This document shows, piece after piece, positions 29,135 through 61,523 of a DNA stretch of 64,000 nucleotides. The translations under genes and the position numbers were made by a program. Origin of the DNA: Bacteroidota bacterium (GTDB lineage Bacteria; Bacteroidota; Ignavibacteria; UBA10030); assembly GCA_026416125.1 (NCBI GenBank), contig JAOAFT010000003.1:82022-146021 (forward strand). The letters run 5' to 3'. The notes below the pieces were generated by a model. It was not told the DNA's origin. It did not search any database and saw only the letters and a program-made list of their open reading frames with translations. Numbering within the stretch: position 1 is the stretch's first letter; every line of letters begins with the position of its first letter.

Positions 29135-29163
29135 TTGACAAACACAGAAAGTGGTTTTATATT
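29135..29163 (+). promoter_or_regulatory. Consensus-like sigma70 promoter (TTGACA, 17 nt spacer, TATATT) upstream of the pectin locus
   Basis: ttgaca at 29135-29140, a 17-nt spacer, then tatatt at 29158-29163, about 95 nt upstream of the GH28 ATG at 29258. Confidence 0.4.
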
Positions 29164-29257
29164 GCCAAGTGTTTGCGCGCTGGTGTAAAGGCTATAGCAG
29201 AAGTCATGCGCGGTGGCTTCTGGTGTTGTAATGATAACATATGTGTGTGAGGTTGTG

Positions 29258-30655
29258 ATGGGATATATCATTTCTAAGGTCAAGCTACTCTTGCTTTTAC
29301 TTACTATTGTCAGTTGGACAGTAAGTTCACAAGTTGATTGGAGTACAAAAGAGGAAATACTACGACGGATCATCCCACCTACCTTCCCCTCACGTACGTT
29401 TGATGTAACACAGTACGGTGCTGTGGGTAATGGGAAAAAGGATTGTTCAAAAGCGTTTGCGAAAGCAATTGACGCATGTTCAAAAGCAGGTGGAGGAACT
29501 GTGTTAGTACCAGCTGGAAAATATCTAACTGGTCCGATTGTACTTAAAAGTAATGTGAACTTGCACGTTGCGAAAGATGCGGAGATTCTCTTTTTTACCG
29601 ACCCTGATAAGTATTTGCCGGTTGTTTTCAGTCGGTGGGAGGGGGTTGAATGTATGAATTATTCGCCGTTGATTTACGCAATGGAACAGGAGAACATTGC
29701 AATTACGGGAGAAGGGGTATTGAATGGACAGGCGTCGTTCGAAAATTGGTGGTCGTGGAAAGGGCCGTGGAAGTATGTAAAAGAAGTAAAAGGTCCCACC
29801 CAACGAGAAGCACGCGCGAAACTGTTCCAAATGGCTGAAGATGGTGTTCCTGTAGAGAAACGGATATTTGGTAAAGGATCCTATCTTCGACCAAATTTTT
29901 TCATGCCTTACAAGTGCAAAAACGTTCTTGTTGAAGGTGTAACATTTAAAGATTCTCCTATGTGGTTCCTCAACCCGGTTCTATGCACGAATGTTTCGTT
30001 CATCAATGTAAAAACTATTGGATTAGGTCCTAATAACGATGGTATCGATCCTGAGTCATGTAAAGATGTTCTCATTCGAGGATGCTACTTCGATAATGGG
30101 GATGATTGTATTGCAATCAAATCTGGTCGAAATGCCGATGGGCGACGGATCAATGTTCCTTGTGAGAATATTATAGTTGAAAATTGTATAATGAAAAATG
30201 GTCATGGAGGAGTTTCCATCGGTAGTGAACTCTCTGGTGGTGTACGGAATGTGTTCATTGAGAATAACCTCATGGATAGTCCAAATCTTGATCGAGCGCT
30301 CCGGATTAAAACGAATGCGATGCGCGGTGGAGTTGTGGAGAATGTTTTCATGCGAAACTGTAAAGTTGGACAAGTAGCAGAGTCGGCAATAAAAATTGAT
30401 TTCTACTACGAAGAAGGTGAACGCGGTAATTTTACGCCAATTGTACGGAGTGTGTTTATTGATAGTATCGAGTGTCAAAAAGTCCCCTATGCTATCTGGA
30501 TTAAGGCGTTTAAACACTCACCTGCAACAAATGTTCGAATTACTAACTGTACCTTCAATGATGTTGCAAATGCAAATGTTATCGAGAATGTTAAAAATTT
30601 CGATCTAATAAATGTCGTTGTTAATAATCGACATACAAGTGAAAAAAGTAAGTAA
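29258..30655 (+). CDS. Glycoside hydrolase family 28 (polygalacturonase / exo-polygalacturonase) with signal peptide
   Basis: ATG at 29258 begins signal peptide MGYIISKVKLLLLLLTIVSWTVSSQ (ORF track begins at GTG 29213). GH28 motifs NDGIDPESC, GDDCIAIKSG, GHGGVSIGSE, RIK. Confidence 0.85.
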   Translation: MGYIISKVKLLLLLLTIVSWTVSSQVDWSTKEEILRRIIPPTFPSRTFDVTQYGAVGNGKKDCSKAFAKAIDACSKAGGGTVLVPAGKYLTGPIVLKSNVNLHVAKDAEILFFTDPDKYLPVVFSRWEGVECMNYSPLIYAMEQENIAITGEGVLNGQASFENWWSWKGPWKYVKEVKGPTQREARAKLFQMAEDGVPVEKRIFGKGSYLRPNFFMPYKCKNVLVEGVTFKDSPMWFLNPVLCTNVSFINVKTIGLGPNNDGIDPESCKDVLIRGCYFDNGDDCIAIKSGRNADGRRINVPCENIIVENCIMKNGHGGVSIGSELSGGVRNVFIENNLMDSPNLDRALRIKTNAMRGGVVENVFMRNCKVGQVAESAIKIDFYYEEGERGNFTPIVRSVFIDSIECQKVPYAIWIKAFKHSPATNVRITNCTFNDVANANVIENVKNFDLINVVVNNRHTSEKSK

Positions 30656-30689: not shown

Positions 30690-33593
30690 ATGGCAAAGCG
30701 AGCATTCATATCTCTAGTGATTGTTTGCGCACTTTTTTGTGTAGCGCACAATGTTCTATTTGCACAAACCGGCGGTAAACTTGCTGGCGTCGTAACTGAT
30801 GAACAAACCGGTGAACCACTTATTGGAGCAAACGTTGTTGTACGTGGTACAAGCCTTGGTGCATCAACAGACCTCGATGGGAACTACTTTGTTCTCAATA
30901 TTCCAGCTGGGAAGTACGAAGTACAGGTATCGATGGTTGGTTACGAACGAGTAATTGTACGTGATGTAATTATCAATTCGGGCCGTACAACAACTCTCAA
31001 TGTCCAGTTGAAACAAACTGCGATTGAACAAGAAGCTGTGGTGGTTGAAGCTGTACGCCCTGACGTTGAGAAAGAAAAAACGTCAACAAGTGCTGTCGTT
31101 CGACCTGAAGAAGTACAGTCCCTTGCAGGGGTACGTGATGTTGCCGATGTAATTGGGTTGGCTGCGGATGTGACAGATGGCCACTTCCGTGGAGGTCGTA
31201 CTAACGAGGAACTCTATGTTCTCCAAGGTATGGGGATTAACAATCCGCTCGATAATTCCTCGGCGTTTATGCCAATTGTGAGCGCCGTAGAGGAAATCGA
31301 AGTTATTACGAGTGGATTTGATGCACAGTACGGTAATGCGCAGTCCGGTGTTGTGAATATTACTATGAAAGAGGGAAAACCAGACAAATGGCGTTCTCGG
31401 TTTGAATCTCGTGTGAAGATGCCCGGGAATAAATACTGGGGACCAAGCCCTTTCGATGTAAAAGCGCAACCATACCTTTTGAAACTTTCTAATTCAAACT
31501 TTTGGCGATATGGGGATTTTAGCAATGGCTATCAGCCATTAATGAACTGGATGAATATGCTTTTCGCTGGGGATACTAATGTGATGGTACATGCAACGCG
31601 AGTTGTGTGGGACAAAATTACTTCACGCGACATTAATAAAGATTATTCAAGAAAACTCGATTATTCATTCGAAGGTGCAACCGGTGGGCCGATTGATAAC
31701 GGCGTAACAATGTTCATTGCATTTCGATCAAACGTTGAAAGCCCAATTTTACCAACTGAAGAACCGGATCAACAACGACAAGTAATGGGGAATATTGCGT
31801 TTGATCTCGGTTCAGGTGCTGCATTCAAAGTAAGTGGTGGTTATCAACAGCAATACGAAAATTATTTTGGTGGTGGAACTGCGTTCTATAATTACGTATG
31901 GGATCGAATTCTTGGTATTCAGTACAGGCTCCGTACAAACCATCAACTAGGTTTCCGATTTACGAAAGCGCTCAGTGCAAAATCGTTCTACGACATTAAA
32001 TTGAATTCATTGAGAACAGAAAACAGGCTTGGGTCCACACCGTGGTACGATGTTATTACAGATGCAGTAAGGAATATGGAGACTGGTACGGCAATTATAA
32101 CACGGACCGGAAACTTGCTCTACTATCAAAATATAACAGGTAAAACATTTTCCTACCTTGGCAATAACTATGGTAATTTCCAGAACGAGCGAACAATCAC
32201 TGTCTCGCTCGATGCATCGTATACCAATCAAATTACAACTTCACATTTACTTAATGCAGGTATCCAAGCGAATTACTACGTTCTTCGTGTTGATAATATT
32301 GGTAGTATTAACTCGAAGGGAAGCATTACACAAACAAAGTATACAGGATATCCGTGGGAAGCAGGAATCTACGTGCAAGATAAGATGGAATTTGAAGGGA
32401 TGATTGCAAAAGTTGGGTTGCGCTGGGATGTATGGAACTCTAACAATTGGTACTACGAAGACATGTTCAATCCATTCAATGTACGAGATGCTCAGGGAAA
32501 TGTGACAGACGTTCAAGACCCAGAACGTGCACCAAAGAAAAAAGCAAAGCCTGTTGGTCGATTGCAACCACGAATAGGTATTTCCTTCCCTGTTTCGATG
32601 ACCACTGTTTTTCACTTGAACTACGGTACCTTCCTGCAACGACCTCCATTCCAGTACATGATCGGAAGCAGGATGAACATGTTATCCACAACTACAACAC
32701 CAAATACGCTTGGGAATCCGCGACTTGAACCACAATCCACGAACTCATACGATGTTGGAGTTATGCAGGGATTGGGAGAAGGATTTACACTTGATGTGAG
32801 CGGCTGGTATAAGGATGTTAAACACCTTGTTGAACAAGTTATCTTCACAGATCAGATTCGTGGTGTTTCCTACAACTCATACTTTAATAGGGATTATGCG
32901 GATATTCGCGGGTTCAGAGTTGTGTTAACGAAACGCCGTGGTGTACTGACAGGTTCATTAAATTATCAATACAGTGTTGCAACTGGGAAGAGTTCGTCAC
33001 CGGTGAATGCACCATGGGGTATTAAACGGGACCTCCAGGGTAACGTATCGACAGATATTTCAAAAGTGCCGCTTCGTGATGTTTTGTTGAACTTCGATCG
33101 TACACACAATCTCATTCTTACTTTAGCGTATGCCACTGGTGAGAAGTGGGGGCCAAAATTCTTCGATGTTTACCCATTCTCGTCAATGGTGTTTTCGGTT
33201 CGTAGTTTTGCCCGCAGTGGACGTCCCTATACACCATCCGGACAGGCGACAGAAATTAACACACGTCGAACGCCGAATGAGTACGAAACAAACATACGCA
33301 TAACAAAAACACTGAAGAAGTTTTTAGGAATGCAAGCATCCATATATGCTGAAATCTTCAATGTCTTCAACAACAAGATTTACGACTACAACTATGTTTT
33401 CAATACAGCAAACAAAACTGATGCCAACCAGATTCTCGTTCACTACGAACGATATCCATTTGAAGATATGACAAATGGAATTTTGTACTACGATAACTAT
33501 GCTGAAGGTACTGGGTTTGCGTGCGATCACTCCTTTGTTTTATATGATAATAGTCCTCGCTCATTTTATGTTGGTATTTCGATAGAGTTTTAA
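30690..33593 (+). CDS. TonB-dependent outer-membrane receptor with N-terminal carboxypeptidase-regulatory-like domain
   Basis: Signal peptide, CarbopepD_reg-like domain (GKLAGVVTDEQTGEPLIGANVVV...GKYEVQVSMVGYE), plug region, long beta-barrel, and C-terminal aromatic residue (SIEF). Confidence 0.8.
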   Translation: MAKRAFISLVIVCALFCVAHNVLFAQTGGKLAGVVTDEQTGEPLIGANVVVRGTSLGASTDLDGNYFVLNIPAGKYEVQVSMVGYERVIVRDVIINSGRTTTLNVQLKQTAIEQEAVVVEAVRPDVEKEKTSTSAVVRPEEVQSLAGVRDVADVIGLAADVTDGHFRGGRTNEELYVLQGMGINNPLDNSSAFMPIVSAVEEIEVITSGFDAQYGNAQSGVVNITMKEGKPDKWRSRFESRVKMPGNKYWGPSPFDVKAQPYLLKLSNSNFWRYGDFSNGYQPLMNWMNMLFAGDTNVMVHATRVVWDKITSRDINKDYSRKLDYSFEGATGGPIDNGVTMFIAFRSNVESPILPTEEPDQQRQVMGNIAFDLGSGAAFKVSGGYQQQYENYFGGGTAFYNYVWDRILGIQYRLRTNHQLGFRFTKALSAKSFYDIKLNSLRTENRLGSTPWYDVITDAVRNMETGTAIITRTGNLLYYQNITGKTFSYLGNNYGNFQNERTITVSLDASYTNQITTSHLLNAGIQANYYVLRVDNIGSINSKGSITQTKYTGYPWEAGIYVQDKMEFEGMIAKVGLRWDVWNSNNWYYEDMFNPFNVRDAQGNVTDVQDPERAPKKKAKPVGRLQPRIGISFPVSMTTVFHLNYGTFLQRPPFQYMIGSRMNMLSTTTTPNTLGNPRLEPQSTNSYDVGVMQGLGEGFTLDVSGWYKDVKHLVEQVIFTDQIRGVSYNSYFNRDYADIRGFRVVLTKRRGVLTGSLNYQYSVATGKSSSPVNAPWGIKRDLQGNVSTDISKVPLRDVLLNFDRTHNLILTLAYATGEKWGPKFFDVYPFSSMVFSVRSFARSGRPYTPSGQATEINTRRTPNEYETNIRITKTLKKFLGMQASIYAEIFNVFNNKIYDYNYVFNTANKTDANQILVHYERYPFEDMTNGILYYDNYAEGTGFACDHSFVLYDNSPRSFYVGISIEF

Positions 33594-33626
33594 TGAAACG
33601 TTAAACCATTATTGTGGGATATAACT

Positions 33627-35993
33627 ATGAAAAGAATTAGTGTTTTATTCTTAAGTGTGCTAACTATAGTAAGCGTTCTCTATGCTCAACGGGATTACCG
33701 TGTTCATAGGCGGTCAATGCTCCATCAAACAATTTACAACACTGGTGAAATTGGCAGAGCTCTTGATGCAAATGCATCAACGACGAACGGTGTTCCAAAG
33801 TTACCAGAAGGAAGTTTCCCAGCAACATTAGCGTCGTGGGAATGGCCGCCGTTTGGGTATCAAATTCTCGATGGAATTGAGTATTGGGGCCATCACAATT
33901 CATTTGGTGCAGGGATTCTCTTTAGTGCAGATATTCCTACTACAACTGGTGTTGTAAATGTACGCCGTGCATGCGGTGCTGTTACCGATGGCGCTGGAAA
34001 TAGTACACAAGTTGCAGGGATTTATGTTGTACCAGGGTCGATTACTCGTACGGAGAATTATCCTGTTCTTGCTGATGGATCGCTCAACCCGAATTACAAT
34101 CCGAATGAGGCAGAAGAAATTATAACAACGACCTATCGCACAACTGATCCGATGAAACTTCAGATTACCCAAACAAGCCGGGCATGGAGTTACCCAGGAT
34201 ATGACTCCTTTATAATTATTGAATACGAAATTGTGAATGTTGATACAGTTGACTATACCAACGGTTTTGTGATGTTTGGTGAAGCGATTGCGCCTTCTGC
34301 GTTTGGAATGCAGCGGAAGTATGCATTGTGGAATGAATCATCAAACACAACACGTGCACAGGAGGTGTACGCTCGTTACAACTTTACTCGATATCTTTCA
34401 TACGTACACACACGGAATGGATTCCCAGATAAAGATTATTTCAACATGTGGTCTACTCCAGGCAATAGGGGTGGCTTGAATGCTCCACAGGCCGTTGGGT
34501 ACATGATTCTACGGTATGATACGAACAACATTCAAACAAAAGACATGTTTACTTATGCTCGAAGCGATAGTGCTGTTGTTTGGGACGAACAGGGAAGATT
34601 CAAGCAACCATGGATTACTCAGCAGATACCGAATAGAAATCAGGATTTAAGTGATTCGCGGCTAGGTGCACTCATGATGATATCAAACCGTCCATTTTCA
34701 GGCTTTGATTTTCGGAGCGGGAGAACTGACTCGACTAACTGGGCAAATTTCTACTACCCCTATGCATCTGTTAATCCGGCGAAGAATTTGGAACTTATGA
34801 AATACTGGCATGGTCGTATACGACCACGAGCAACAGGTACCGGAAATTATTCGCAAACAACATTGCACTATACAACATTTGGCCCCTATGTTTTTAAAAA
34901 GAATGTGCGGATGAAATTTGCTATTGCCCAGTTAGTGGGCTACGGTCCTGGTATCGCAACTGATACAGTTTACCGTGATGCAGGAGGTTTTGCGACTGAA
35001 ACTGGATATTCAACGGGTGGATTCAAACCAGTAGTTAGTTGGTATGATTCCATCTCCTATCCTGGTATTCATGCGACCTTTACTCACATGGGGAGCGCAT
35101 ATTTAAAAACACACCCATTACCATGGTATGTAACAGGGAAAATATCAAATCTTGATCCGGAACCTGTTATCTCCCTACGGCAAGTTGCGGATCGAGCTAT
35201 TCAAATGTATACAGGTCAACCATACAAAAATTACAACGAAGAACAATACAAACCGGAATATGCACCTGCATCAGGTGTTTACAAGTCAGCTTATATTCCG
35301 ATTCCAGCACCAGCTATTGATGTTTACAATGCAGCTGACATGAAAAATAAAATTGTATGGTCACCATCGGTTGAAGATTTTACGTCGCTATCCCAAATCA
35401 GAACAGCTATCGGTGAAGGTAGAGTACGTTCGGGTCTTAAACACTATCTTGTATTGAAAGCAGAAAAACCGTTAGGTCCTTGGAAAGTTCTCGATAGTGT
35501 AAAGGTACGAGACCCTCGATATTTCAATGCTGATATTCAATACCCAGGGTACTACGTTGTACGTGACACATCGAGTTTGTTGAACGAGAATTACTTCTAC
35601 TGTGTTGTGTCTGTTGATTCTACTGGGGGTCGAAGTGGTATGACGAATATTACCTATCACGCAACACAAAAAGGTGCTGTGTCAAAATTGTCGAAAGTGT
35701 ATGTTGCACCAAACCCACTTATACTGACGGCGAATTTTGGTGGATATACTACGCAGGGCGATATTTACGATAAAATTGGATTTTTTGGATTATCACCGAA
35801 GTGTGATATTCGAATCTTTTCCTATAGTGGTCAGTTAATTGCAACCATTCACCATCGGTCAGATACATACTCCACAGAATGGTTCCAAATATCGAGAAGT
35901 GAACAAAGAATTGCCTCGGGTGTTTACTTCTATGTTGTAGAAGATTTGGTCACAGGCGATCGTGTTCATGGTAAGTTTGTCATAATTCATTGA
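33627..35993 (+). CDS. Aromatic-rich hypothetical surface protein (about 790 aa) with T9SS type-A C-terminal sorting domain
   Basis: ATG at 33627 (MKRISVLFLSVLTIVSVLYAQ signal peptide). The C-terminal roughly 90 aa match the Por_Secre_tail pattern (VYVAPNPLIL...DIRIFSYSGQLIATI...GVYFYVVEDLVTGDRVHGKFVIIH). The body is very rich in W, Y and N and has no family I can assign. Confidence 0.6.
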   Translation: MKRISVLFLSVLTIVSVLYAQRDYRVHRRSMLHQTIYNTGEIGRALDANASTTNGVPKLPEGSFPATLASWEWPPFGYQILDGIEYWGHHNSFGAGILFSADIPTTTGVVNVRRACGAVTDGAGNSTQVAGIYVVPGSITRTENYPVLADGSLNPNYNPNEAEEIITTTYRTTDPMKLQITQTSRAWSYPGYDSFIIIEYEIVNVDTVDYTNGFVMFGEAIAPSAFGMQRKYALWNESSNTTRAQEVYARYNFTRYLSYVHTRNGFPDKDYFNMWSTPGNRGGLNAPQAVGYMILRYDTNNIQTKDMFTYARSDSAVVWDEQGRFKQPWITQQIPNRNQDLSDSRLGALMMISNRPFSGFDFRSGRTDSTNWANFYYPYASVNPAKNLELMKYWHGRIRPRATGTGNYSQTTLHYTTFGPYVFKKNVRMKFAIAQLVGYGPGIATDTVYRDAGGFATETGYSTGGFKPVVSWYDSISYPGIHATFTHMGSAYLKTHPLPWYVTGKISNLDPEPVISLRQVADRAIQMYTGQPYKNYNEEQYKPEYAPASGVYKSAYIPIPAPAIDVYNAADMKNKIVWSPSVEDFTSLSQIRTAIGEGRVRSGLKHYLVLKAEKPLGPWKVLDSVKVRDPRYFNADIQYPGYYVVRDTSSLLNENYFYCVVSVDSTGGRSGMTNITYHATQKGAVSKLSKVYVAPNPLILTANFGGYTTQGDIYDKIGFFGLSPKCDIRIFSYSGQLIATIHHRSDTYSTEWFQISRSEQRIASGVYFYVVEDLVTGDRVHGKFVIIH

Positions 35994-36011: not shown

Positions 36012-37046
36012 ATGAAGAGTAACAAAAAAATATTTTTCAGTGTTTTTGCGCTACTTCTCGTTATTTCGACGATAACAAGTGCGCAAAAAGTTGGTAGCAC
36101 ATCTATGCAATTTCTTAAAGTCATGCCAGTAGCCCGAGCAACAGCTATGGGGGATGCCTATGCTGTTTGGGCAAAAGGTGCTGAAGCAGTATTTTGGAAC
36201 CCTGCTGGCCTTCAATATACAAATGGTAATGAACTCACAATGACTTACGTACAATGGATTTTTGATACATACCAAGGAGCATTTGCATATGCACGATCAT
36301 TAGGTATGTGGGGTTCACTTGGTCTCCAATTGCAATATGTCGACTTTGGTACATTCGATGAAGCTGTGTGGGTTCCACCGTATAACCAAGATCTCAATAC
36401 ACCTGGCTTAACGGGACGTACGTTCCGTCCTTATAGTTATTTAGTTGGTATTAGCTATGCAAATGCTTTGACCGATAAGTTTACAACGGGACTAACAGTA
36501 AAATACGCTCACGAGTCACTCTATAATGATAAAGAAGTTGAAGTGTGGATCTACCACCCTGATACATCAAAGATAAAAGTGAAGACGTGGGCCAATGTGG
36601 TACTCTTCGATTATGGTATTCATTATAAAACTGGCTACCGAACGATTGAAATTGCAGCGTCGATCCAAAATTTTGGCCCTAATGTCAAGTATGGTAAAGA
36701 AGATCACCCTGCACCCCTCTCGTTCCGCATAGGTATTGCAGGCGATCTCATGGGGCCTGACGCATTGTTGTTCAAGAGTGAGAACAGTCGGTTAGGTATG
36801 GAGTTTGACATTTTCCACCCAAATGATTATACACAACAGTACCACATTGGTGCAGAGTATGAGTTTGCTCAACTCATAGCACTTCGTGCTGGATATAAAC
36901 TCAATTACGATGCCGATGGGTTTACTGCTGGACTTGGTATTAAACAAACGCTTGGCACTGTTCGGTTCGCATTCGATTACAGCTTTGGGATGTTAAATTA
37001 CCATCTTGGAAATGTTCACAGAATAAGTTTAGGAGTGGGATTCTAA
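36012..37046 (+). CDS. Outer-membrane beta-barrel protein, FadL/PorV/PorQ/SprF-superfamily-like
   Basis: Signal peptide. N-terminal motif ARATAMGDAYAVWAKGAEAVFWNPAGL (a FadL/PorV-type AxMGGAY...NPAxL signature). Alternating amphipathic strands and a C-terminal aromatic residue (SLGVGF). Confidence 0.55.
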   Translation: MKSNKKIFFSVFALLLVISTITSAQKVGSTSMQFLKVMPVARATAMGDAYAVWAKGAEAVFWNPAGLQYTNGNELTMTYVQWIFDTYQGAFAYARSLGMWGSLGLQLQYVDFGTFDEAVWVPPYNQDLNTPGLTGRTFRPYSYLVGISYANALTDKFTTGLTVKYAHESLYNDKEVEVWIYHPDTSKIKVKTWANVVLFDYGIHYKTGYRTIEIAASIQNFGPNVKYGKEDHPAPLSFRIGIAGDLMGPDALLFKSENSRLGMEFDIFHPNDYTQQYHIGAEYEFAQLIALRAGYKLNYDADGFTAGLGIKQTLGTVRFAFDYSFGMLNYHLGNVHRISLGVGF

Positions 37047-38605
37047 TGAAACAGCACATACTCAATTTTGGATTCTATATTCTCATTGCTACATTTGGAA
37101 TTGTTAGCAATGTGTACTCACAAGAGGGTACATCTCTCAAGATGCAAGGGTTGAATTATTATACAAACCAATCTACAATCTCACGGGCAATGGGTGGTGT
37201 GACAGTTGGATTAAAAAATGAACCAACGTTAATGTACCTTAACCCAGCAATGCTAACCTCAATATCTGGGGTTAAATTTTCTGTTGGTGGGTATTGGCAA
37301 AAAAATAGTAAGAATCAAAATCAACAATTTGGTACATTACAAGGACATGCTGGTGCTGTATTTCTATTCCAGGGCATAACATCACAAATTCCTGATCCAG
37401 ATTTCAGTTTGGTAACGAAACGCAGACTCACACAAGAGGATTCTATTCAACGGCCATTCGATAATTTAGGTCCATATTGGAGTAGAGAAAAGAATTTCAC
37501 TTTACCACTTCAGTTTTTTGCAGTTTCACCATTTAAAGTTGGTGACTATAAAGTTGTTGTTGGTATTGGTGCAGTAGAGTATGCCAATTTATATTGGTAT
37601 TACTGCAATAATAATGCGCTTTCTCCAAATGTACTTGATGTTGCAACCTATGGAACAATTCGTACACAAAACTTACCACGGAACGATACCATTGTCACAG
37701 CAACAAAACCCTACCCGGTATATTGGAACAAATACTATCAATATAGGAATGGATCAATTAATGGGTATGGTGGTGCCGTTGCAGTAGAACTATCACCAAG
37801 GTTTTCACTAGGCGTAAGTGGTATGTACCTTGATGGTGAAACAACGGATGAAGAAGGACAACAAGGACGTGGAAGAATGTTGTTCTTTTATAACTCAATA
37901 CGCCTTGATAAGTATGGAATGACAACTTATAAAACACGAGGTAAATCGACATACAGTGGCTTTGAATTTATCGTAAGTGGTACATACACATCGCCCTATA
38001 TTCAGGTAGGTTTCTCATTAAAACCACCGACGACGCTAGAACGTAAGTTTAACTACTCTTATTGGAAAGACTCAGTTGCAGCGACAAAAAGACTTGATTC
38101 CAAAGCCGATTCAATTCACATCATAACAACTTCATATCCAAGTGGAAATGATAAAATGGAATTACCACTCCGTGGATCATTAGGAATTGCGATTACTATT
38201 AAAGAAAATATTCTTGTTGCTTTTGAGTATGAAGTTAATCCGTACGCTTCTGCAACGTATATTGCCCCAAATGGAATATCCTCAAAGCCATGGTTGTCGT
38301 CCTCCACAATGAAGTTCGGTGCAGAATGGAACGTTGTTGAGTGGTTAAAACTTCGTGGTGGCATGCGACAAGTGGGTGAAGTGTTTCAACCTGCGACTAA
38401 TCCACTCCGTGGTGAAAACGTTAAGTACCCGGTATACTCACTTGGGTGTGGTGTAACTGCATTTGGCGCAACACTGAACATAACGTATGAATATTCTGAT
38501 CGACGGTATACCGATACATGGTCGAATGCTGCGAGTATTAATCATCAGTATGTCCATACAATTGTTGCTGACATGACATACCAACTGCCATTTCTTCTAT
38601 GGTAG
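37046..38605 (+). CDS. Second FadL/PorV-like outer-membrane beta-barrel protein (519 aa)
   Basis: Start overlaps the previous stop. Signal peptide. N-terminal SRAMGGVTVGLKNEPTLMYLNPAML is paralogous to the preceding gene's motif. Ends with the aromatic YQLPFLLW. Confidence 0.5.
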   Translation: MKQHILNFGFYILIATFGIVSNVYSQEGTSLKMQGLNYYTNQSTISRAMGGVTVGLKNEPTLMYLNPAMLTSISGVKFSVGGYWQKNSKNQNQQFGTLQGHAGAVFLFQGITSQIPDPDFSLVTKRRLTQEDSIQRPFDNLGPYWSREKNFTLPLQFFAVSPFKVGDYKVVVGIGAVEYANLYWYYCNNNALSPNVLDVATYGTIRTQNLPRNDTIVTATKPYPVYWNKYYQYRNGSINGYGGAVAVELSPRFSLGVSGMYLDGETTDEEGQQGRGRMLFFYNSIRLDKYGMTTYKTRGKSTYSGFEFIVSGTYTSPYIQVGFSLKPPTTLERKFNYSYWKDSVAATKRLDSKADSIHIITTSYPSGNDKMELPLRGSLGIAITIKENILVAFEYEVNPYASATYIAPNGISSKPWLSSSTMKFGAEWNVVEWLKLRGGMRQVGEVFQPATNPLRGENVKYPVYSLGCGVTAFGATLNITYEYSDRRYTDTWSNAASINHQYVHTIVADMTYQLPFLLW

Positions 38606-38654: not shown

Positions 38655-39302
38655 ATGAGAAAACGAAAGCTAGTTTTGGTGGTATTACTAGTACCAATCA
38701 TAACATATTCGCAGGGACTGACGTTAACTTTTGGTGGTGGACTTTCAGTCCCGTTGAGTGAGAATAACATGTCGAAGTACTTTAAAACAACGACTAAATT
38801 TATGTTTGCTGATTGTTGGAACTATGGTTTCAATCTCACAGCAGGTATTGATTACAAATTTAATGAACAATTTACCGCGTTTGCTACTGTAGACTATAGT
38901 TCTTTTTCAGTGAATAAGAGTATGGTATTAAAGCGACTTCGCCTTCCTGCAGGCACATATGTACAAGATGGCGAATTTACCACAGTCGCTGGGAAAGTAG
39001 GTATGCGGTACTACCTACCGGTTTACTTTATTGATAGAAACGTGAAACCATATATCTCAGCTAGTGCTGGCATAATGAATCTGGCAAGTGATAAATTGTA
39101 TGTACTCATCGATGCATATACGAACTTTGTTGCAGCATTCAAAAACAGCAATGTGCTCTGTGGCTCTTTGGGAGTCGGTGTTGATGTTATTGGCGGTGAA
39201 TCTTCTGCGTTATTTATTCAACTCGGTCTTGATGTAGCAAATACGAAAGGTGGGTCTCTCTACTATGTTCCTTTGATTGTAGGTTTTCGAGGAGCATTCT
39301 AA
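38655..39302 (+). CDS. Small outer-membrane beta-barrel protein (OmpA-like/OmpW-like, 215 aa)
   Basis: Signal peptide, 8-10 amphipathic beta-strands, and C-terminal ...GFRGAF. Confidence 0.5.
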   Translation: MRKRKLVLVVLLVPIITYSQGLTLTFGGGLSVPLSENNMSKYFKTTTKFMFADCWNYGFNLTAGIDYKFNEQFTAFATVDYSSFSVNKSMVLKRLRLPAGTYVQDGEFTTVAGKVGMRYYLPVYFIDRNVKPYISASAGIMNLASDKLYVLIDAYTNFVAAFKNSNVLCGSLGVGVDVIGGESSALFIQLGLDVANTKGGSLYYVPLIVGFRGAF

Positions 39303-39336
39303 ATGCTTTATGTTGTGTGAGGCTGTAAAATGTGAT

Positions 39337-39365
39337 ACGCACCACCCTGTGGTGCGTTTTTTTTG
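39337..39365 (+). terminator. Rho-independent terminator
   Basis: acgcaccac at 39337-39345 and gtggtgcgt at 39349-39357 form a 9-bp stem with a 3-nt loop, followed by a T9 run. Confidence 0.75.
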
Positions 39366-39385
39366 AGCATGGAGGAAAACCATTA

Positions 39386-40930
39386 ATGATAGACAATGGT
39401 AACAAAATTCCATCGATATATCGAATGTTATGTGTAGTGTTTTTCGCAAGTATGTTCTTAGCTAGTGACGTTCAAAAAACAAAGTTTAGAATATTTCTTA
39501 TGGGTGATTCAACAATGGCAGATAAACCACTTGTTGACAACCCAGAGCATGGGTGGGGACAGATGTTTCCCATGTTCTTTACCAGAGATGTTGAAATATT
39601 TAACCATGCACGTAATGGTCGTAGCACAAAGAGTTTCTTGGCTGAAGGTCGTTGGAAAACAATTTACGAGCAATTGCAAAGTGGTGATTATGTAATTATT
39701 CAATTTGGGCACAATGATGCAAAAAAAGATGATTCAACACGGTTCGCCGCTCCACGGCCTGAGTACAAAGAAAATCTTCGCCGATTTATTCGTGAAGCGC
39801 GTGAAAAGAATGCAATTCCAATTCTCCTTACACCAGTTACACGACGAGATTTTAATGAGCATGGTGAATTTGTAGCAACACACTTCGAGTATCCTGATGC
39901 AATGAAGGAAGTTGCTCGAGAAGAGAATGTGTTTCTCATTGATGTTTTTGAACTCTCAAAATCAGTTGTAGGTCCAATGGGGCCTGAAGGCTCGAAGAAG
40001 TTGTACTTAGCTGGTGTCAAAGATGGTATGTATCGTGTGTGGAATAAAAAGAAAGATAATACCCATTTCTCGCGTTTAGGTGCTTTTATAATAGCAAAGC
40101 TTGTTGCGGAAGGTATTCGTGAATTGAAACTTCCACTTGCAACCGAGCTTGTTGATCTACCACAAAGCTCTCTGCTATTGCCAGCCTACGGTAAAGTTGT
40201 TGCTCTCGATTATTATTTCAATAATGAGTGGCGTACTTCGAAGGGAAAAGATTCTGTTGAACGTTTTCACTATACTTGGGAAGACACAACGAACAGCGGG
40301 TTTTCACAACTCGGGAGAGTGCTCGACTGGCTAGGCGCAGATCTCGATACTATCCAATCACCTCCAACAATATCAACGCTCCAACATTGCAGTATTTACA
40401 TCATTGTTGACCCAGATACTCCAAAAGAAACAACAAGTCCACATTACATTACAGAAGAAGATGTTACTGTACTTAAACAATGGGTTGAAAATGGAGGTGT
40501 GTTATTATTGATGGCAAACGATAAAGGGAATTGTGAATTTAACCACTTTAACAAACTTGCAGAACAGTTTGGTATTCGTTTTACAGAAGACAATCACTTT
40601 ATGGTTAAAAATAACGTCTATGAAATGGGCAGAATAGAGGAATTCCCAGACCATCCTGCTTTTAATGGGGTGAAGCATATTTTTATGAAGGAAGTAACTT
40701 CAATTACGACAACTCCACCTGCACAGCCACTCCTTACTGCTCGTGGAGTTACGATTATGGCGTACGCTCGCGTTGGAAAAGGTTTAGTTGTAGCTGTCGG
40801 TGATCCATGGTTATATAATGAATACTTTGATAACAGACGTTTACCTAAGGGATATGAAAATTGGGATGCGGGGAAACAATTCTTTACATGGCTACTGAGT
40901 CAATCACGGCAGATATACTTTGAGAATTAG
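39386..40930 (+). CDS. SGNH/GDSL hydrolase (CE12 rhamnogalacturonan acetylesterase-like) fused to a C-terminal roughly 280-aa GATase1-like/DUF4350-like domain
   Basis: GGAGGA at 39371-39376 and ATG at 39386 (the ORF-track start at 39332 lies inside the terminator). SGNH block I FLMGDSTMAD, the GHND block and a DAKKDD region. The C-terminal half (GGVLLLMANDKGN..., VAVGDPW) is unrelated to the esterase domain. Confidence 0.65.
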   Translation: MIDNGNKIPSIYRMLCVVFFASMFLASDVQKTKFRIFLMGDSTMADKPLVDNPEHGWGQMFPMFFTRDVEIFNHARNGRSTKSFLAEGRWKTIYEQLQSGDYVIIQFGHNDAKKDDSTRFAAPRPEYKENLRRFIREAREKNAIPILLTPVTRRDFNEHGEFVATHFEYPDAMKEVAREENVFLIDVFELSKSVVGPMGPEGSKKLYLAGVKDGMYRVWNKKKDNTHFSRLGAFIIAKLVAEGIRELKLPLATELVDLPQSSLLLPAYGKVVALDYYFNNEWRTSKGKDSVERFHYTWEDTTNSGFSQLGRVLDWLGADLDTIQSPPTISTLQHCSIYIIVDPDTPKETTSPHYITEEDVTVLKQWVENGGVLLLMANDKGNCEFNHFNKLAEQFGIRFTEDNHFMVKNNVYEMGRIEEFPDHPAFNGVKHIFMKEVTSITTTPPAQPLLTARGVTIMAYARVGKGLVVAVGDPWLYNEYFDNRRLPKGYENWDAGKQFFTWLLSQSRQIYFEN

Positions 40931-40972
40931 TACAGTTCGAATTTTAGATTGTTAATGATGAGGATGCATAAA

Positions 40973-42625
40973 ATGAAACAAAAGGTTGTTGATGGATTTT
41001 TTATTGTTGCGTTGTTGAGTTCAATGGCTTTTTCACAGCTTCACAGAATATACGAACCAATTCCACATCGATACTATGAGGGTGTTCACTTTGCTATGCC
41101 ACAAGTTCCGCTCCCAACAATTCCAAATGTAAGTGTGTCAATAGTTGAATTTGGTGCGAAAGGAGATGGAGTAACACTTAACACGAAAGCTTTTGCCGAT
41201 GCTATTGCTGCATGTGAACAAAAAGGGGGGGGGAGAATTGTAGTGCCACCAGGTATTTGGGTTACAGGACCTATTGTTCTCAAAAGTAACATTGAGTTGC
41301 ATGTTGTACGTGGTGCAATTGTGTTGTTTTCCTCCAACATTGATGATTACCCAATGATCCAACGTCCGAAGAGTACAGCGTTTACAAGATCACCTCTTCT
41401 GTATGCTGTTGGCGCGCACAATATTGCAATTACAGGAGAAGGGATGTTTAATGGAAATGGCCAGTACTGGCGCCCTGTCAAAAAGGAAAAACTTCCAAGT
41501 GGTCATTGGAAACGCCTTATTGAGTCTGGCGGAGCTGTTACGTCGGATGGAAAATTATGGTACCCATCGAAGGAAGCACTGGAGGGTGAGAAGTATTTGG
41601 ATGAGCTTCGTAAATCAAAGAAAAGACTTGATTCCACTGATTATGCTGCAACGCGGGAATTCTTGCGCCCCGATTTGTTAGCGTTTGTTAATTGTTCAAC
41701 CATCCTTATTGATGGTCCATCTTTTGTTAACTCGCCGAAATTTACTGTCCATCCAATTCAATGCGTGGATGTGGTCATTCGTAATATTGAAATTTTCAAT
41801 GAGTGGTGGTTCCAAAATGCAGATGGTATTGATTTGTCATCTTGCAGAAACGTTGTTGTCTACAATAATGTTATTAATACAGGTGATGATGGAATTTGTG
41901 TAAAACCTGGTACACCAAACCCAAAGTTGAAAGATTTACCTGCGTGTGAAAATTATATTATCGCTGATAATATTGTGTATCACGCACATGGTGGTTTTGT
42001 GATTGGAAGTGAATCGTATGGAGGAGCAAGAAATATAAGTGTAAAAAACCTTACCTGCGTATGGACGGATGTAGGGCTTCGGTTTAAGTCGGCTCGTGAC
42101 CGTGGAGGTCTTGTTGAACATATTGTGATCGATAGTGTATGGATGAAAGATATTGCAGGCGAGGCGATCCTTTTTGATATGTCCTACGGAGATGCGCCTA
42201 CGGATGTTCCACAAGAACGAATTAGAATCCCTCAATTCAGAAATTTCACGATTCGAAATGTTGTTTGTGATGGAGCACGATACGGTGTGAGAATTGAAGG
42301 GTTACGTGAACAACCGATTCACACTATTTCAATTGAAAATGCTACTTTACTTTCTGATCGATCTGTCCTTATGAATTATGCTGAAGGAATACAATTGAAT
42401 CGAGTTGCTCTACGTTCGAAATATGAGCCATACTGTACGATTAAGAATAGTCAACAAATTGTTTTCGATAATGTTAATCTTCTAGATTCCGTAAGCATTT
42501 TCTTACGTGTTGAAGGTAGTACAACAAAAAACATTAGAGTACACAAATCAGTGCTTGAGCGTAGTCAAAAACCATTTGAGACATCGAATGGTGCAAGTGA
42601 AAGCTCAGTAGTATTCATACACTGA
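40973..42625 (+). CDS. Glycoside hydrolase family 28 (polygalacturonase/rhamnogalacturonase-like)
   Basis: AGGA RBS and ATG at 40973 (MKQKVVDGFFIVALLSSMAFSQ). GH28 motifs NADGIDLSSC, GDDGICVKPG, HGGFVIGSE, RFK. Contains a G9 homopolymer at 41225-41233. Confidence 0.8.
   Translation: MKQKVVDGFFIVALLSSMAFSQLHRIYEPIPHRYYEGVHFAMPQVPLPTIPNVSVSIVEFGAKGDGVTLNTKAFADAIAACEQKGGGRIVVPPGIWVTGPIVLKSNIELHVVRGAIVLFSSNIDDYPMIQRPKSTAFTRSPLLYAVGAHNIAITGEGMFNGNGQYWRPVKKEKLPSGHWKRLIESGGAVTSDGKLWYPSKEALEGEKYLDELRKSKKRLDSTDYAATREFLRPDLLAFVNCSTILIDGPSFVNSPKFTVHPIQCVDVVIRNIEIFNEWWFQNADGIDLSSCRNVVVYNNVINTGDDGICVKPGTPNPKLKDLPACENYIIADNIVYHAHGGFVIGSESYGGARNISVKNLTCVWTDVGLRFKSARDRGGLVEHIVIDSVWMKDIAGEAILFDMSYGDAPTDVPQERIRIPQFRNFTIRNVVCDGARYGVRIEGLREQPIHTISIENATLLSDRSVLMNYAEGIQLNRVALRSKYEPYCTIKNSQQIVFDNVNLLDSVSIFLRVEGSTTKNIRVHKSVLERSQKPFETSNGASESSVVFIH
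41225..41233 (+). repeat. Homopolymeric G9 tract inside the GH28 coding sequence
   Basis: Read directly: caaaagggggggggagaatt, encoding KGGGR. Confidence 0.9.
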
Positions 42626-42690
42626 GGAACCAGGAGTAGCACTCGAAGAAAATATTCATACTTGGGGTGGAGAAAGGAAAAAGATTTTTG

Positions 42691-43986
42691 ATGGTTGGTA
42701 GAAGTATTTTATTCTCGTTAGTTTTTATAAGTATTGGTGTTTTGAATAGTTTTGATATATTCGCGCAAAGACGCTTCGAGTACATTGTTGCAAAGGATGG
42801 GAGTGGTCAATTTCGCTCGATTCAGGAGGCGATTGATGCAGTTCCATTTAATCGACAGGAGCGAGCCGTTATTATTGTAAAGAAAGGTGTTTACGAAGAA
42901 AAACTTTTTATAGCTAAGAGTAACATTGCTATTGTTGGAGAAGATCGCGATAGTACGCGTATTGTGTATCCACAGCTTCGTAGTACATGGCGTGCTGTAA
43001 ATAACGATAATGACTATGGAAGTGCAGTTGTAAACATTGATTCCTCTGCAGTCGATATTACGATTGCTAACTTGACGATTTATAATAATTATGGTTCGCT
43101 CACAGGGATCCATGATCATCAATTTGCAATTTATGGTACAGGAACTCGTATTATTCTTCTTAACTGCAATGTCGTTGCAGATGGTGGCGATACCGTAAGT
43201 TTGTGGAACCGGACGAATGGAATGTACTATCATGCGAACTGTTACTTCGAAGGTTGGGTTGATTATGTATGTCCTCGTGGGTGGTGCTATATTACAGATT
43301 CTCGGTTCTATGGCCATAATCTAAGTGCTTCAATTTGGCACGATGGTAGTGCTAATAAAAAACAAAAATTTGTTATTCGATACTCATACTTCGATGGTGT
43401 ACCAGGATTTCCCCTTGGACGAAACCATCGCGATGGACAAATCTATCTCCTTGATTGTATTTTTTCAAGAAACATGGCTGATATACCGATTTACTACCCA
43501 CCGACAACAACTAGTGGGCCATGGAAGTGGGGAGCGCGGCATTACTATTACAATTGCCATCGTGAAGGTGGAGACTACGATTGGTTTGCTGATAATTTAC
43601 ATACCGCCGAAGGTGCACCAAAACCAGATGAAGTCACTGCACATTGGACATTCGATTACCTGTGGGATCCTGAAGCATCGCTTCCTGCAATTCTCCCATT
43701 TGTGTCAATGCCAGTGCCCCGCAATGGCGCCTATATAGCATATCAGTCTCGTCTTTCATTGCGATGGCTACCATCTCGAACAGCACAAGCATTTCGTCTA
43801 TTTTTTGGGAAAGTGAAGAAGTATACATTCATGAAAGATCCACAATTGAGTATGATTGCAGAAGTAAAAGAAGCCCAGTTTGAAATATCTTCTCTTGAAC
43901 CAGCAACAACGTACTTTTGGCAAGTCGAAGAAATAACACCATATGGAATTCTCCGTGGACCTGTGTGGCACTTCACAGTACGGTAA
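42691..43986 (+). CDS. Pectinesterase (CE8 pectin methylesterase) with C-terminal FN3/Ig-like domain
   Basis: CE8-type motifs (GVYEEKL, DHQFAIYGTG in the QAVAL position, GGDTVSLWN in the QDTL position, GWVDYVCPRG in the DFIFG position, LGRNHRDGQ in the LGRPW position). ATG at 42691 is preferred over GTG 42667. Confidence 0.75.
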   Translation: MVGRSILFSLVFISIGVLNSFDIFAQRRFEYIVAKDGSGQFRSIQEAIDAVPFNRQERAVIIVKKGVYEEKLFIAKSNIAIVGEDRDSTRIVYPQLRSTWRAVNNDNDYGSAVVNIDSSAVDITIANLTIYNNYGSLTGIHDHQFAIYGTGTRIILLNCNVVADGGDTVSLWNRTNGMYYHANCYFEGWVDYVCPRGWCYITDSRFYGHNLSASIWHDGSANKKQKFVIRYSYFDGVPGFPLGRNHRDGQIYLLDCIFSRNMADIPIYYPPTTTSGPWKWGARHYYYNCHREGGDYDWFADNLHTAEGAPKPDEVTAHWTFDYLWDPEASLPAILPFVSMPVPRNGAYIAYQSRLSLRWLPSRTAQAFRLFFGKVKKYTFMKDPQLSMIAEVKEAQFEISSLEPATTYFWQVEEITPYGILRGPVWHFTVR

Positions 43987-44039
43987 GTAACCTCCATGTA
44001 TATTCTTTTTGCGTGTGTAATAATTGATGGGAGTAATCT

Positions 44040-45665
44040 ATGAAATGGGAAATTGTTATTAGTATTTTTTTGATTTTGGGTTCATCTATCATACAGGCAC
44101 AGCAACTTGCCTTTCCTTCTGCCGAAGGCGCTGGGCGTTTTGCTACTGGTGGACGTGGTGGTGCTGTGTACGAAGTAACGAATCTGAATAATAGTGGACC
44201 TGGTTCGATTGTCGATGCTGTAAGTCAACCAAATCGTACGATTGTTTTTCGTGTCTCTGGTACAATTGAGTTGGGAAATGTGATTTTAAAACCAAAATCG
44301 AATATAACGATTGCGGGACAAACCGCACCAGGGGATGGGATTTGTATTAAAGGGCGTATCCAAATTGATGCATCGAATGTTATTATTCGATACATACGTG
44401 TTCGTGTAGATGCTGGTGCTGCAAATTCATCGGGCGATGCAATTGATATCTCAAGTGGTTCGAACATTATAATTGATCACGTCAGTGCATCGTATGCCCG
44501 CGATGAAGGAATCTCTTGCCAAGAGAGAACAAACAATGTGACAGTTCAGTGGTGTATGATTACCGAGGCACTAACGTTCGAAAGTCATAGCTACGGTTCG
44601 TTGATTCGCGGTGATTATGGTGATTTGAAGACGTACCACCACAATCTCTATGCACACAACAACAATCGACTCCCACGTCCGGGTAACTATACCAATTACC
44701 CTACCGACACACTTGGTCTGTTTTTCGATTTCAGGAATAATGTAGTGTACAATTGGAAAGGTTCATATCCTGGCTACAATGCTGATACTGGTTCCATTAG
44801 CAACTACAATTTTGTAGGAAATGTGTATGTTCCTGGACTTGAGTCGAGTATTACAGGGATTATTTTTAAAGAGGATGCATATCGGTCAACAGGGTATTTC
44901 GCTGACAACATGTACAACGGCTCAATACCACCCAATCAGTGGTCGATGGTTCAATTCGGAAGCAAGTTTACTGCTGAGAGAATTCAGGCATATAAAGCAC
45001 GTTCTCGAGAAATTCTAATGCCTCCTGTTCGTACGACGAGCCCTCAGATTGCATACCAGGAAGTACTTGCTTCTGCTGGTGCAAGCTTTCCAAAGCGGGA
45101 TCCAATTGATACCCGAATTGTATACGATGTACAAAATAAAACAGGTCGTTCAATCGCTACGACTGCAGAACAACCAGAAGGTGGATGGCCAGTGTTACAG
45201 AGTCTTCCAGCTCCGCAAGACGATGATCACGACGGAATGCCAAATGAGTGGGAACGTGCATTTGGGCTTAATCCGAATGATCCAAGTGATCGTAATGTAT
45301 ATTCACCAGCAGGGTACACAATGCTTGAAGAGTACCTCAATAGTCTCGTTGGTGAAAGCACTATCACCGATGTCGCGTTCACTCAAACTCCAAATATACC
45401 GCTGGAAGTACGTCTGTTCCAGAATTTTCCCAATCCATTCAATCCCGTAACGGTAATTCAATTTCAACTTCAAATGGCCTCCGTTGTCTCGGTAAAGGTC
45501 TATTCAGTCCAAGGTAAAGAAATACAAACACTTACTCATGGGGTATATCCCACGGGGTTGCATTCAGTTGTGTTCGATGGATCCAATCTACCTAGCGGTG
45601 TTTATGTATATCGGTTGCACACTGCTACCCAAACACTTTCGAAAACAATGGTTTTATTGAAGTAA
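44040..45665 (+). CDS. Pectate lyase (PL1-like) with T9SS type-A C-terminal sorting domain
   Basis: Signal peptide. Pectate-lyase N-terminal block AFPSAEGAGRFATGGRGGAVYEVTNL...ITIAGQTAPGDGICIKG...IIRYIRVR. The C-terminus NFPNPFNPVTVIQF...GVYVYRL...VLLK matches the Por_Secre_tail. Confidence 0.75.
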   Translation: MKWEIVISIFLILGSSIIQAQQLAFPSAEGAGRFATGGRGGAVYEVTNLNNSGPGSIVDAVSQPNRTIVFRVSGTIELGNVILKPKSNITIAGQTAPGDGICIKGRIQIDASNVIIRYIRVRVDAGAANSSGDAIDISSGSNIIIDHVSASYARDEGISCQERTNNVTVQWCMITEALTFESHSYGSLIRGDYGDLKTYHHNLYAHNNNRLPRPGNYTNYPTDTLGLFFDFRNNVVYNWKGSYPGYNADTGSISNYNFVGNVYVPGLESSITGIIFKEDAYRSTGYFADNMYNGSIPPNQWSMVQFGSKFTAERIQAYKARSREILMPPVRTTSPQIAYQEVLASAGASFPKRDPIDTRIVYDVQNKTGRSIATTAEQPEGGWPVLQSLPAPQDDDHDGMPNEWERAFGLNPNDPSDRNVYSPAGYTMLEEYLNSLVGESTITDVAFTQTPNIPLEVRLFQNFPNPFNPVTVIQFQLQMASVVSVKVYSVQGKEIQTLTHGVYPTGLHSVVFDGSNLPSGVYVYRLHTATQTLSKTMVLLK

Positions 45666-45675
45666 GGAGTTAAAT

Positions 45676-50931: not shown

Positions 50932-51161
50932 CGTTTGTTTTTTGCTTCATTCAATCATAAGAAAGATTCGATTGAAAATCTATACTATGCTTTACGAAAA
51001 TATGCAGATTAATACATCTGTTTGAGTGAAAAATATCGCTCTTTGTATAGTACTCCTAACATTGCATTCGCTTCCTTTATGTGTTATATTTCACTATAAA
51101 AGTGGTAAGTATTACATCTCAGCTGAATTTGGAACTAATAATTCACAAAAACACTCACTTC

Positions 51162-58017: not shown

Positions 58018-58036
58018 TTTGGTGAGGAACTAAATA

Positions 58037-58618: not shown

Positions 58619-58619
58619 T

Positions 58620-60784: not shown

Positions 60785-60789
60785 AGTTT

Positions 60790-61482: not shown

Positions 61483-61523
61483 TGAATTAATACCATAACA
61501 ACATAATATGAAAGGAATCAACA

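Follow-up and report, generated by a model that had tools for sequence, protein, structure and literature searches.

A 64,000-nucleotide stretch of contig JAOAFT010000003.1 (assembly GCA_026416125.1, from a Bacteroidota bacterium), which we will call the window, contains two adjacent genes for putative outer-membrane barrels, open reading frames (ORFs) A and B. These are the 3' half of a four-gene cassette. The first gene of the cassette encodes a TonB-dependent receptor-like protein, and the second encodes a secreted protein of 793 amino acids that ends in the kind of C-terminal domain (CTD) that marks type IX secretion system (T9SS) substrates. In window coordinates, the cassette contains:

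30690–33593, + strand: cassette gene 1, a TonB-dependent receptor-like protein of 967 amino acids with an N-terminal carboxypeptidase-regulatory-like domain

33612–35993, + strand: cassette gene 2, a secreted protein of 793 amino acids with a signal peptide, a fibronectin type III (FN3)-like domain, and a T9SS CTD

35682–35990, + strand: the CTD of the 793-aa protein (residues 691–793), of an apparently type-A-derived, PorZ-like subtype

36012–37046, + strand: cassette gene 3 (ORF A), a PorV/PorQ-family outer-membrane barrel of 344 amino acids

36132–36212, + strand: the hatch motif of A, ARATAMGDAYAVWAKGAEAVFWNPAGL (residues 41–67 of A), in the most conserved segment of the family

37046–38605, + strand: cassette gene 4 (ORF B), a FadL-superfamily barrel of 519 amino acids that is closest to BamG

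37181–37255, + strand: the hatch motif of B, SRAMGGVTVGLKNEPTLMYLNPAML (residues 46–70 of B; positions 12–55 of the PorV_fam profile)

Gaps of 18 nt separate the receptor gene from the gene for the 793-aa protein and the latter gene from A. The genes for A and B overlap by a single base: in TAATG, the stop codon of A ends on the base that begins the start codon of B. A preliminary description of this DNA had reported A and B with these coordinates and lengths, and both of the peptides that it quoted are present. It also placed the pair directly after a T9SS cargo gene, and indeed the upstream protein ends in a CTD and A is immediately downstream of it. But the pair does not merely lie between a cargo gene and pectinase genes, as that description had it. 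Instead, A and B belong to a strictly conserved unit that is headed by the receptor gene directly upstream (30690–33593), which the description had missed. This moves the likely role of the barrels from serving secreted enzymes to building an uptake complex.

We scanned 185,579 species-representative genomes with a pattern derived from B, which gave 39 loci, and we mapped their gene order with hidden Markov models. The order receptor, 793-like protein, PorV-family barrel (A), and B-like barrel was found in all 39 loci, wherever the contig extends far enough. The same array was present in metagenome loci that were seeded from B or from the 793 family, within the available flank. The 793-like proteins of the cassettes have 730–800 amino acids and a distinctive T9SS CTD. 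The lineages with cassettes include Ignavibacteriota, Ignavibacteriales, Ignavibacteria, Calditrichota, KSB1 / Candidatus Zhuqueibacter, Rhodothermales, and metagenome-assembled genomes (MAGs) labelled Bacteroidota. In 41 of 44 loci, the end of the gene for A and the start of the gene for B overlap, by either 1 or 4 nt, which indicates that their translation is coupled. Distant relatives of B (190–250 bits) come after a PorV-like gene as well, and in two loci (L048 and L049) the 793-like, PorV-like, and B-like genes are all present, with the same CTD subtype. We have high confidence in this parts list and in the conservation of the cassette. Within a limited literature collection, we found no published description of it.

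Most of the cassette loci carry genes for glycoside hydrolases of family GH28 or GH88, pectinesterases of family CE8, polysaccharide lyases of family PL1 or PL9, KduI/KduD, or UxaC; these are pectin utilization loci. (A GH28 gene precedes the receptor gene in many of the related loci.) For instance, the cultured and fully sequenced bacterium Roseithermus sacchariphilus (Rhodothermales) carries the cassette (CP030158.1, 1,621,465–1,629,222, in strain MEBiC09517) within a pectin locus (L036; 1617825–1639216) with the order PL9-KduD-KduI ... UxaC-PL1-GH88. The contig of another locus (L047, 1–11826) starts inside the PorV-like gene, and downstream of its cassette are PL6/PL9-like lyases, a PL17-type alginate lyase, a 2-keto-3-deoxygluconate (KDG) aldolase, and a short-chain dehydrogenase/reductase (SDR). 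From this alginate-lyase locus, it seems that the module also serves alginate-type polyuronates.

The regulatory genes next to the cassettes differ. In L051, a Reg_prop/Y_Y_Y histidine kinase (1536–4682, - strand) and a LytTR response regulator (737–1474, + strand) lie just upstream of the cassette, and LacI-type regulators are found in L002, L004, and L050. This suggests that regulation varies between lineages. In the KSB1 loci L006 and L007, a CTD protein and a 446-aa protein come after a second receptor, and we considered whether these might be an analogous cassette. We rejected this: the second receptor is of the standard TonB-Xanth-Caul kind, and after it come a CTD protein and then a PelZ-type lyase.

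ORF A matches the NCBIfam model for the PorV/PorQ family (NF033709) at 207.4 bits, with a cutoff of 90, and the alignment covers the entire model (positions 1–326 of 326). All 47 relatives of A match this model too. A also matches Pfam's PorV model (31 bits, with a cutoff of 27), and a profile of the 47 relatives matches the solved structure of PorV from Flavobacterium johnsoniae (6h3i_F; E = 2.5e-15). However, A falls below the equivalog cutoffs for both PorV (NF033710, 74.8 vs. 250 bits) and PorQ (NF033711, 90.4 vs. 220 bits). Because the family model is matched and both equivalogs are missed, the profile scores make A clearly a member of the PorV/PorQ family that is an orthologue of neither the housekeeping PorV nor PorQ. 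Its best equivalog score (PorQ rather than PorV) and its length are PorQ-like. Within the A family, residues 31–60 are the most conserved (0.84 pairwise identity), and N63 and P64 are invariant. Weak matches to BamG were seen in 21 of the 47 relatives. The preliminary description had also likened A to PorP/SprF, but A has no match to PF11751 or TIGR03519, and just 4 of its 47 relatives have weak ones.

ORF B is annotated as hypothetical in the source MAG, and it has no match in Pfam at E up to 1, even to PF03349 (FadL/OMPP1/TodX). In NCBIfam, B matches BamG (NF053685) at 54.9 bits, which is well below the equivalog cutoff of 250. Across 61 aligned relatives of B, the BamG model matched every one (weakly, with a best E of 6.8e-18), PorV_fam matched 53, and PorQ matched 40. 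In B itself, the match to the PorV/PorQ-family profile is confined to the N-terminal hatch (residues 43–83, E = 3.8e-6). The family is small: out of 1.84 billion representatives, 535 belong to it with a threshold of E = 1e-3, or 194 with a threshold of E = 1e-10. One protein of 5520 amino acids (P0396) matches positions 190–229 of the B profile about 70 times, for a total of 325 bits; this is probably a repeat or a compositional match to an N/Y-rich loop.

The AlphaFold model of B, which was built from the 61-sequence alignment, has a predicted local distance difference test (pLDDT) of 83.6 and a predicted template modelling (TM) score of 0.79. In the model, a short helical segment at the N-terminus plugs a large barrel, and the hatch region (residues 41–90) is modelled at a pLDDT of about 94. 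When we compared the model to the PDB with Foldseek, the top matches were BamG of F. johnsoniae and of Bacteroides thetaiotaomicron (9n2d_B and 9hiv_F), followed by FadL, TbuX, TodX, CymD, and BamG of Porphyromonas gingivalis, all with E of 1e-14 to 1e-10. The target-normalized TM scores for these BamG- or FadL-type matches were 0.54–0.68. The next fold class had E of about 1e-6, and PorV was not among the top 50 PDB matches. B is predicted to have a FadL-type barrel fold with an N-terminal hatch, and its nearest relative is BamG. Hence, of the proposal that A and B are FadL/PorV/PorQ-like barrels, the assignment of A to the PorV/PorQ family holds, as does the FadL fold of B, but B is nearer to BamG and FadL than to PorV. 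B does not score above the threshold of PF03349, but the FadL-type fold and the hatch are apparent in the AlphaFold model and in the Foldseek matches.

Are A and B paralogs? The preliminary description called them a paralogous pair, which overstated their similarity: a BLASTP comparison of A and B is not significant (best E = 0.26, or E = 3.6 for the motif region), and hhalign of the two family profiles aligned the last strands only (probability 55%, E = 1.2e-4). Together, these results rule out a recent tandem duplication. The N-terminal signature that had been proposed to link the two proteins is real at the level of profiles, with the PorV/PorQ profile matching B at residues 43–83 and Pfam's Toluene_X matching A at residues 44–78. 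The NPA of the hatch motif is conserved in both families; in B, it is N66-P67-A68, and P67 and A68 are kept in at least 90% of the 61 relatives. As judged from their sequences, A and B are remote members of one superfamily that share the hatch motif (NPA) of the FadL superfamily.

Given the family matches to PorV, PorQ, and BamG, A and B might simply be the housekeeping PorV/PorQ and BamG proteins, found in a pectin locus by chance. But A and B fall far short of all three equivalog cutoffs, and the linkage to the receptor and to the 793-like genes is constant across phyla. Also, paralogous cassettes occur in other contexts, one of them in an alginate-lyase locus. We rejected the housekeeping identities because of the curated cutoffs and the synteny, and a chance placement seems extremely improbable.

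BamG is a 14-stranded homolog of FadL that binds BamA tightly and serves as a dock for the surface lipoprotein BamH. Its lateral opening is filled by its own extended N-terminus, so that it is not a transporter (PMC12611786, PMC12578637). Three clusters of B orthologues (P0012, P0022, and P0057, with 46–48% identity over the full length) have about 200 extra C-terminal residues, including an OmpA-family peptidoglycan-binding domain, which implies that the barrel is stationary.

B could instead be a genuine FadL-type channel, with lateral or luminal diffusion of amphipathic products of polyuronate breakdown (such as methyl- or acetyl-esterified oligomers) or of a hydrophobic nutrient, while A has a separate role in secretion. 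This would fit with the FadL/TodX/TbuX fold of B, its confidently modelled N-terminal hatch, and the conserved NPA. Many relatives of B also have weak or faint Toluene_X matches: for PF03349, the OmpA-fused P0057 scores 31.0 bits (the cutoff is 29.7) and P0012 scores 27.4 bits, with weak or faint matches in the others. However, the products of pectin and alginate breakdown are hydrophilic and anionic, and there is already a TonB-dependent receptor for them. Furthermore, B is closest to a FadL homolog that does not transport (PMC12578637), its translation is coupled to that of A in 41 of 44 loci, and its small family is seen only inside this cassette. Overall, a channel seems unlikely.

The similarity of B to BamG, in both sequence and structure, raises another possibility: B, together with A, might dock on the β-barrel assembly machinery (BAM) or on the T9SS so as to fold and insert the large receptor and to load its surface partner, without remaining in the uptake complex as a permanent subunit. 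There is a precedent of sorts in the paralogous BamG/H pairs (BamG2H2) that are encoded in Bacteroides operons (PMC12578637). But B is far under the cutoff for BamG (54.9 vs. 250 bits) and the cassette has no gene for a BamH-like lipoprotein. The strict 1:1 coupling with A and the co-inheritance with one receptor and one partner fit better with a stable complex. We think that a role in assembly is quite improbable, more so than a channel.

The 793-aa protein carries a signal peptide and lacks a lipobox cysteine. In NCBI's annotation, it is a T9SS C-terminal target domain-containing protein, and the CTD region of the PorZ model aligns to its C-terminus (E = 3.6e-7). Among 50 of its relatives, 49 match the C-terminus of PorZ and 39 match TIGR04183 (best E = 1.9e-12). 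When its CTD is aligned with the canonical CTDs of the PL1 and PL9 lyases of the locus, the PNP motif, the glycine of the middle strand, SGxYxY, and the C-terminal lysine are all kept, but there is an insertion of 8–12 residues after PNP. The AlphaFold model of the 793-aa protein (pLDDT 75.8) has PDB matches only in the FN3-like domain and the CTD tail, among them PorZ (5m11), which Foldseek aligned over 132 columns at 25% identity. Conservation within the 793-aa family is highest in the CTD, with a mean pairwise identity of 0.65, as compared to 0.48–0.64 elsewhere. For the PL1 orthologues from these loci, conservation is higher in the catalytic part (0.52) than in the CTD (0.41; n = 11). The corresponding control with PL9 has 4 sequences and is uninformative.

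A CTD cargo gene followed by a barrel gene is a known layout for cognate shuttle or anchor barrels of the T9SS (PMC12618676, PMC10947112). In particular, PorZ keeps its CTD uncleaved and is bound by PorQ, and neither PorV nor PorU is needed for this pair to form (PMC10947112). A review proposed that cognate PorV-like barrels shield CTDs from cleavage (PMC10202324). Cargos with type B CTDs use PorP/SprF barrels that are encoded directly downstream, while canonical type A CTDs are served by the general PorV (PMC12618676). From the adjacency of A to a CTD protein in all of the loci, we infer that A binds the CTD of a T9SS substrate. And because A belongs to the PorV/PorQ family, scores best on PorQ, and is next to a protein with a PorZ-like CTD and no lipobox, we favor a relationship like that of PorQ and PorZ.

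A different reading of the same family membership is that A, and perhaps B, are locus-wide T9SS shuttles for all of the CTD enzymes (PL1, PL9, and others), with no particular tie to the receptor. Several enzymes of the locus do have canonical type A CTDs, and in many loci there are CTD proteins on the flanks of the cassette. But the set of CTD enzymes differs by locus, while the 793-like protein, which has a CTD subtype of its own, is the neighbor that stays constant. Moreover, the CTDs of the enzymes are of the canonical type A that the general PorV handles (PMC12618676), the TonB-dependent receptor always heads the cassette, and the OmpA-fused orthologues of B speak against a mobile shuttle. 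We doubt that A and B are general shuttles, to about the same degree that we doubt that B is a channel.

The receptor has a CarbopepD_reg_2 domain (75 bits) and a weak Plug match, and models for TonB-dependent receptors match its plug region (E = 1e-12). Its N-terminal domain matches the solved N-terminal domains of SusC and of other TonB-dependent transporters. Only this domain matches SusC/RagA (TIGR04056), and the score is below the cutoff (64.5 vs. 368 bits). In the Bacteroidia, SusD and surface glycan-binding lipoproteins pass glycans to the TonB-dependent transporter. The partner of the receptor in this cassette, the 793-aa protein, has neither a match to SusD nor a lipobox.

We propose that A and B are subunits of a four-gene outer-membrane module in the SusD-less polyuronate loci of bacteria from the Fibrobacterota-Chlorobiota-Bacteroidota (FCB) group, outside of Bacteroidia. 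By analogy to known systems, this is the explanation that we favor, but we hold it tentatively, at slightly under even odds. In our proposal, the 793-aa protein would be exported by Sec and then transferred across the outer membrane by the T9SS, via its special CTD. Barrel A would be the cognate receptor for this CTD and would keep the 793-aa protein on the surface by its uncleaved CTD, similar to PorQ and PorZ. B would be made in a fixed ratio with A by translational coupling. Rather than being a channel, B would provide a static platform with the FadL fold, much as BamG does for BamA and BamH, and it would link the A-793 unit to the receptor or stabilize it. On the surface, the 793-aa protein would capture the pectic oligosaccharides that are freed by the lyases of the locus and hand them to the TonB-dependent receptor. 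We speculate, more hesitantly, that this is a general arrangement in FCB bacteria outside of Bacteroidia: a T9SS substrate whose uncleaved CTD sits in a PorQ-like barrel might replace the SusD or surface glycan-binding (SGBP) lipoprotein, with a BamG-like barrel joining the transporter.

Several observations weigh against this proposal. The 793-aa protein scores just 14.8 bits against TIGR04183 (the cutoff is 23) and does not match PF18962 (Por_Secre_tail). The idea that its CTD is retained comes only from its conservation, and with 11 sequences, the PL1 control is small. The N-terminal ~560 residues, which are β-rich, have no recognizable fold, family, or binding site, so the 793-aa protein could be an enzyme instead of a binding protein. 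B retains the NPA hatch motif of FadL, which leaves room for a role in transport. Finally, the contacts among the four cassette proteins are hypothetical.

The cassette is surrounded by other genes for pectin utilization and by putative signals for transcription:

29135–29163, + strand: a promoter-like site, TTGACA-17-TATATT (11/12 to consensus), upstream of the first GH28 gene

29213–30655, + strand: a GH28 polygalacturonase (Pfam Glyco_hydro_28, 111 bits), 35 nt upstream of the receptor gene

38655–39302, + strand: a 215-aa outer-membrane-barrel-like protein with a signal peptide and a weak OMP_b-brl match, annotated as hypothetical

39337–39357, + strand: a terminator-like hairpin with a 9-bp stem, 6 GC pairs, and a T-run (a pattern match only)

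39332–48078, + strand: the downstream block of pectin enzymes, as identified by profile matches

The downstream block encodes an SGNH pectin acetylesterase-like protein with DUF4350, a GH28 enzyme, a CE8 pectinesterase, a PL1 pectate lyase, and a PL9-like lyase; the two lyases each have a canonical CTD. The hairpin after the small outer-membrane protein's gene suggests, as a pattern match only, a transcription unit from about 29.2 to 39.35 kb, and it is likely to be the end of the unit GH28-receptor-793-A-B-small outer-membrane protein. The promoter-like site could possibly be the start of this unit, by its match to the consensus only: a scan for promoters gave as many sites as expected from shuffled sequence, and just one of them (29135–29163) is near consensus. 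FCB bacteria often use promoter motifs other than the TTGACA/TATATT type. The hairpin at 39337–39357 overlaps the GTG start of an ORF (39332–40930), and the protein collection has no entry with exactly this translation. The esterase, which is PaeY-like in its SGNH part, probably begins farther downstream than 39332.

Homologues of the 215-aa protein were found only in L002, L003, and L008, which are the closest related loci. It could be a small porin for the products of pectin breakdown; we saw no KdgM-type match for it. We also noticed that in all four cassette proteins, a glutamine directly follows the predicted cleavage site of the signal peptide (LFA-Q, LYA-Q, TSA-Q, and VYS-Q, where the hyphen marks the site). 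This glutamine (Q26) is invariant across the 61 relatives of B, and Q25-K26-V27 of A is invariant as well. Bacteroidota reportedly favor glutamine (as pyroglutamate) just after signal-peptide cleavage.

There are no T9SS core genes in the 64-kb window. Its flanks (1–29015 and 48358–64000) contain housekeeping genes, including rsmH, a penicillin-binding protein, the division and cell wall (dcw) cluster, phosphoglucomutase, an RNA methyltransferase, SMC, and lpxB/lpxK. The flanks also encode an alpha-glucan phosphorylase with DUF3417 (on the minus strand) and a GH2 enzyme.

Overall, a better description of what we found is a TonB-dependent uptake locus with two recruits: CTD-barrel anchoring in the style of the T9SS, and a BamG-like barrel. 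The cassette appears to represent a previously undescribed route to a sugar-uptake complex, without SusD. How polysaccharides are captured at the surface without SusD, outside of Bacteroidia, is poorly understood, and the cassette is a concrete and testable candidate. It connects cognate CTD-barrel pairs of the T9SS, FadL-fold barrels that do not transport (BamG), and the TonB-dependent "utilisomes." Although B and its relatives lack a Pfam model and are annotated just as "hypothetical," their strict co-inheritance with the three partners extends across four or more phylum-level lineages. If our more general speculation is correct, then the T9SS is a builder of machines for nutrient uptake, and the role of FadL-fold barrels as docks for proteins (PorV, PorQ, and BamG) extends to a four-component transport complex. 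Experiments should be feasible in R. sacchariphilus, which is cultured and sequenced, and the cassette could be used as a marker in metagenomes for SusD-independent loci for polyuronate utilization.

Among known systems, the most similar to A and the 793-aa protein is PorQ-PorZ of P. gingivalis, in which a PorV-family barrel holds a T9SS surface protein by its uncleaved CTD (PMC10947112, PMC10202324). Within the PorV/PorQ equivalogs, A scores best on PorQ and its length is similar to that of PorQ, and the CTD of its neighbor is nearest to that of PorZ. However, A is under the cutoff for PorQ (90 vs. 220), and the 793-aa protein is similar to PorZ only in its C-terminal ~110–130 residues. Also, the operon of A and the 793-aa protein contains a TonB-dependent receptor and a second barrel and lies in a carbohydrate locus, not among T9SS genes. 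The type B CTD cargos of F. johnsoniae likewise have their cognate barrel (PorP/SprF) encoded directly downstream (PMC12618676), but A belongs to the PorV/PorQ family, and the CTD of the 793-aa protein appears to be derived from type A instead of type B. As for PorV itself (6h3i chain F, from F. johnsoniae), it is in the same family as A (NF033709), and the first 246 residues of A align to it (E = 2.5e-15). But A has 344 amino acids while the solved chain of PorV has 402 residues. A also misses the cutoff for the PorV equivalog (75 vs. 250), and its genetic linkage is to a single cargo.

BamG (9n2d_B, 9hiv_F, and 9hjm_F) is the best match for B by both structure and sequence, and it is a FadL-fold barrel that serves as a docking platform beside another barrel (PMC12611786, PMC12578637). 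Unlike BamG, B is not linked to bamA or to a BamH-like lipoprotein, but sits in a substrate-specific cassette; B is also ~110–130 residues longer and scores 54.9 bits against a cutoff of 250. B shares its overall fold, and a hatch with the NPA motif, with the channels FadL, TodX, and TbuX (PF03349). But B has no Pfam match, is only 8–13% identical to the solved members, and is found in the context of polyuronate degradation. Relative to FadL of Escherichia coli (as judged from its sequence and the mutant names N33A/P34A), the NPA of B is about 8 residues farther from the predicted mature N-terminus.

The cassette as a whole resembles the SusC/SusD loci, or "utilisomes," of the Bacteroidia. In both, a TonB-dependent transporter with a SusC-like N-terminal extension is followed by the gene for a large surface partner, and the genes for the receptor and its partner lie amid carbohydrate-active enzymes for one glycan. 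But the cassette has no homolog of SusD, and the partner is a predicted T9SS substrate instead of a lipoprotein. The receptor is also under the SusC/RagA cutoff, and the cassette has two additional and obligatory barrels of the FadL superfamily.

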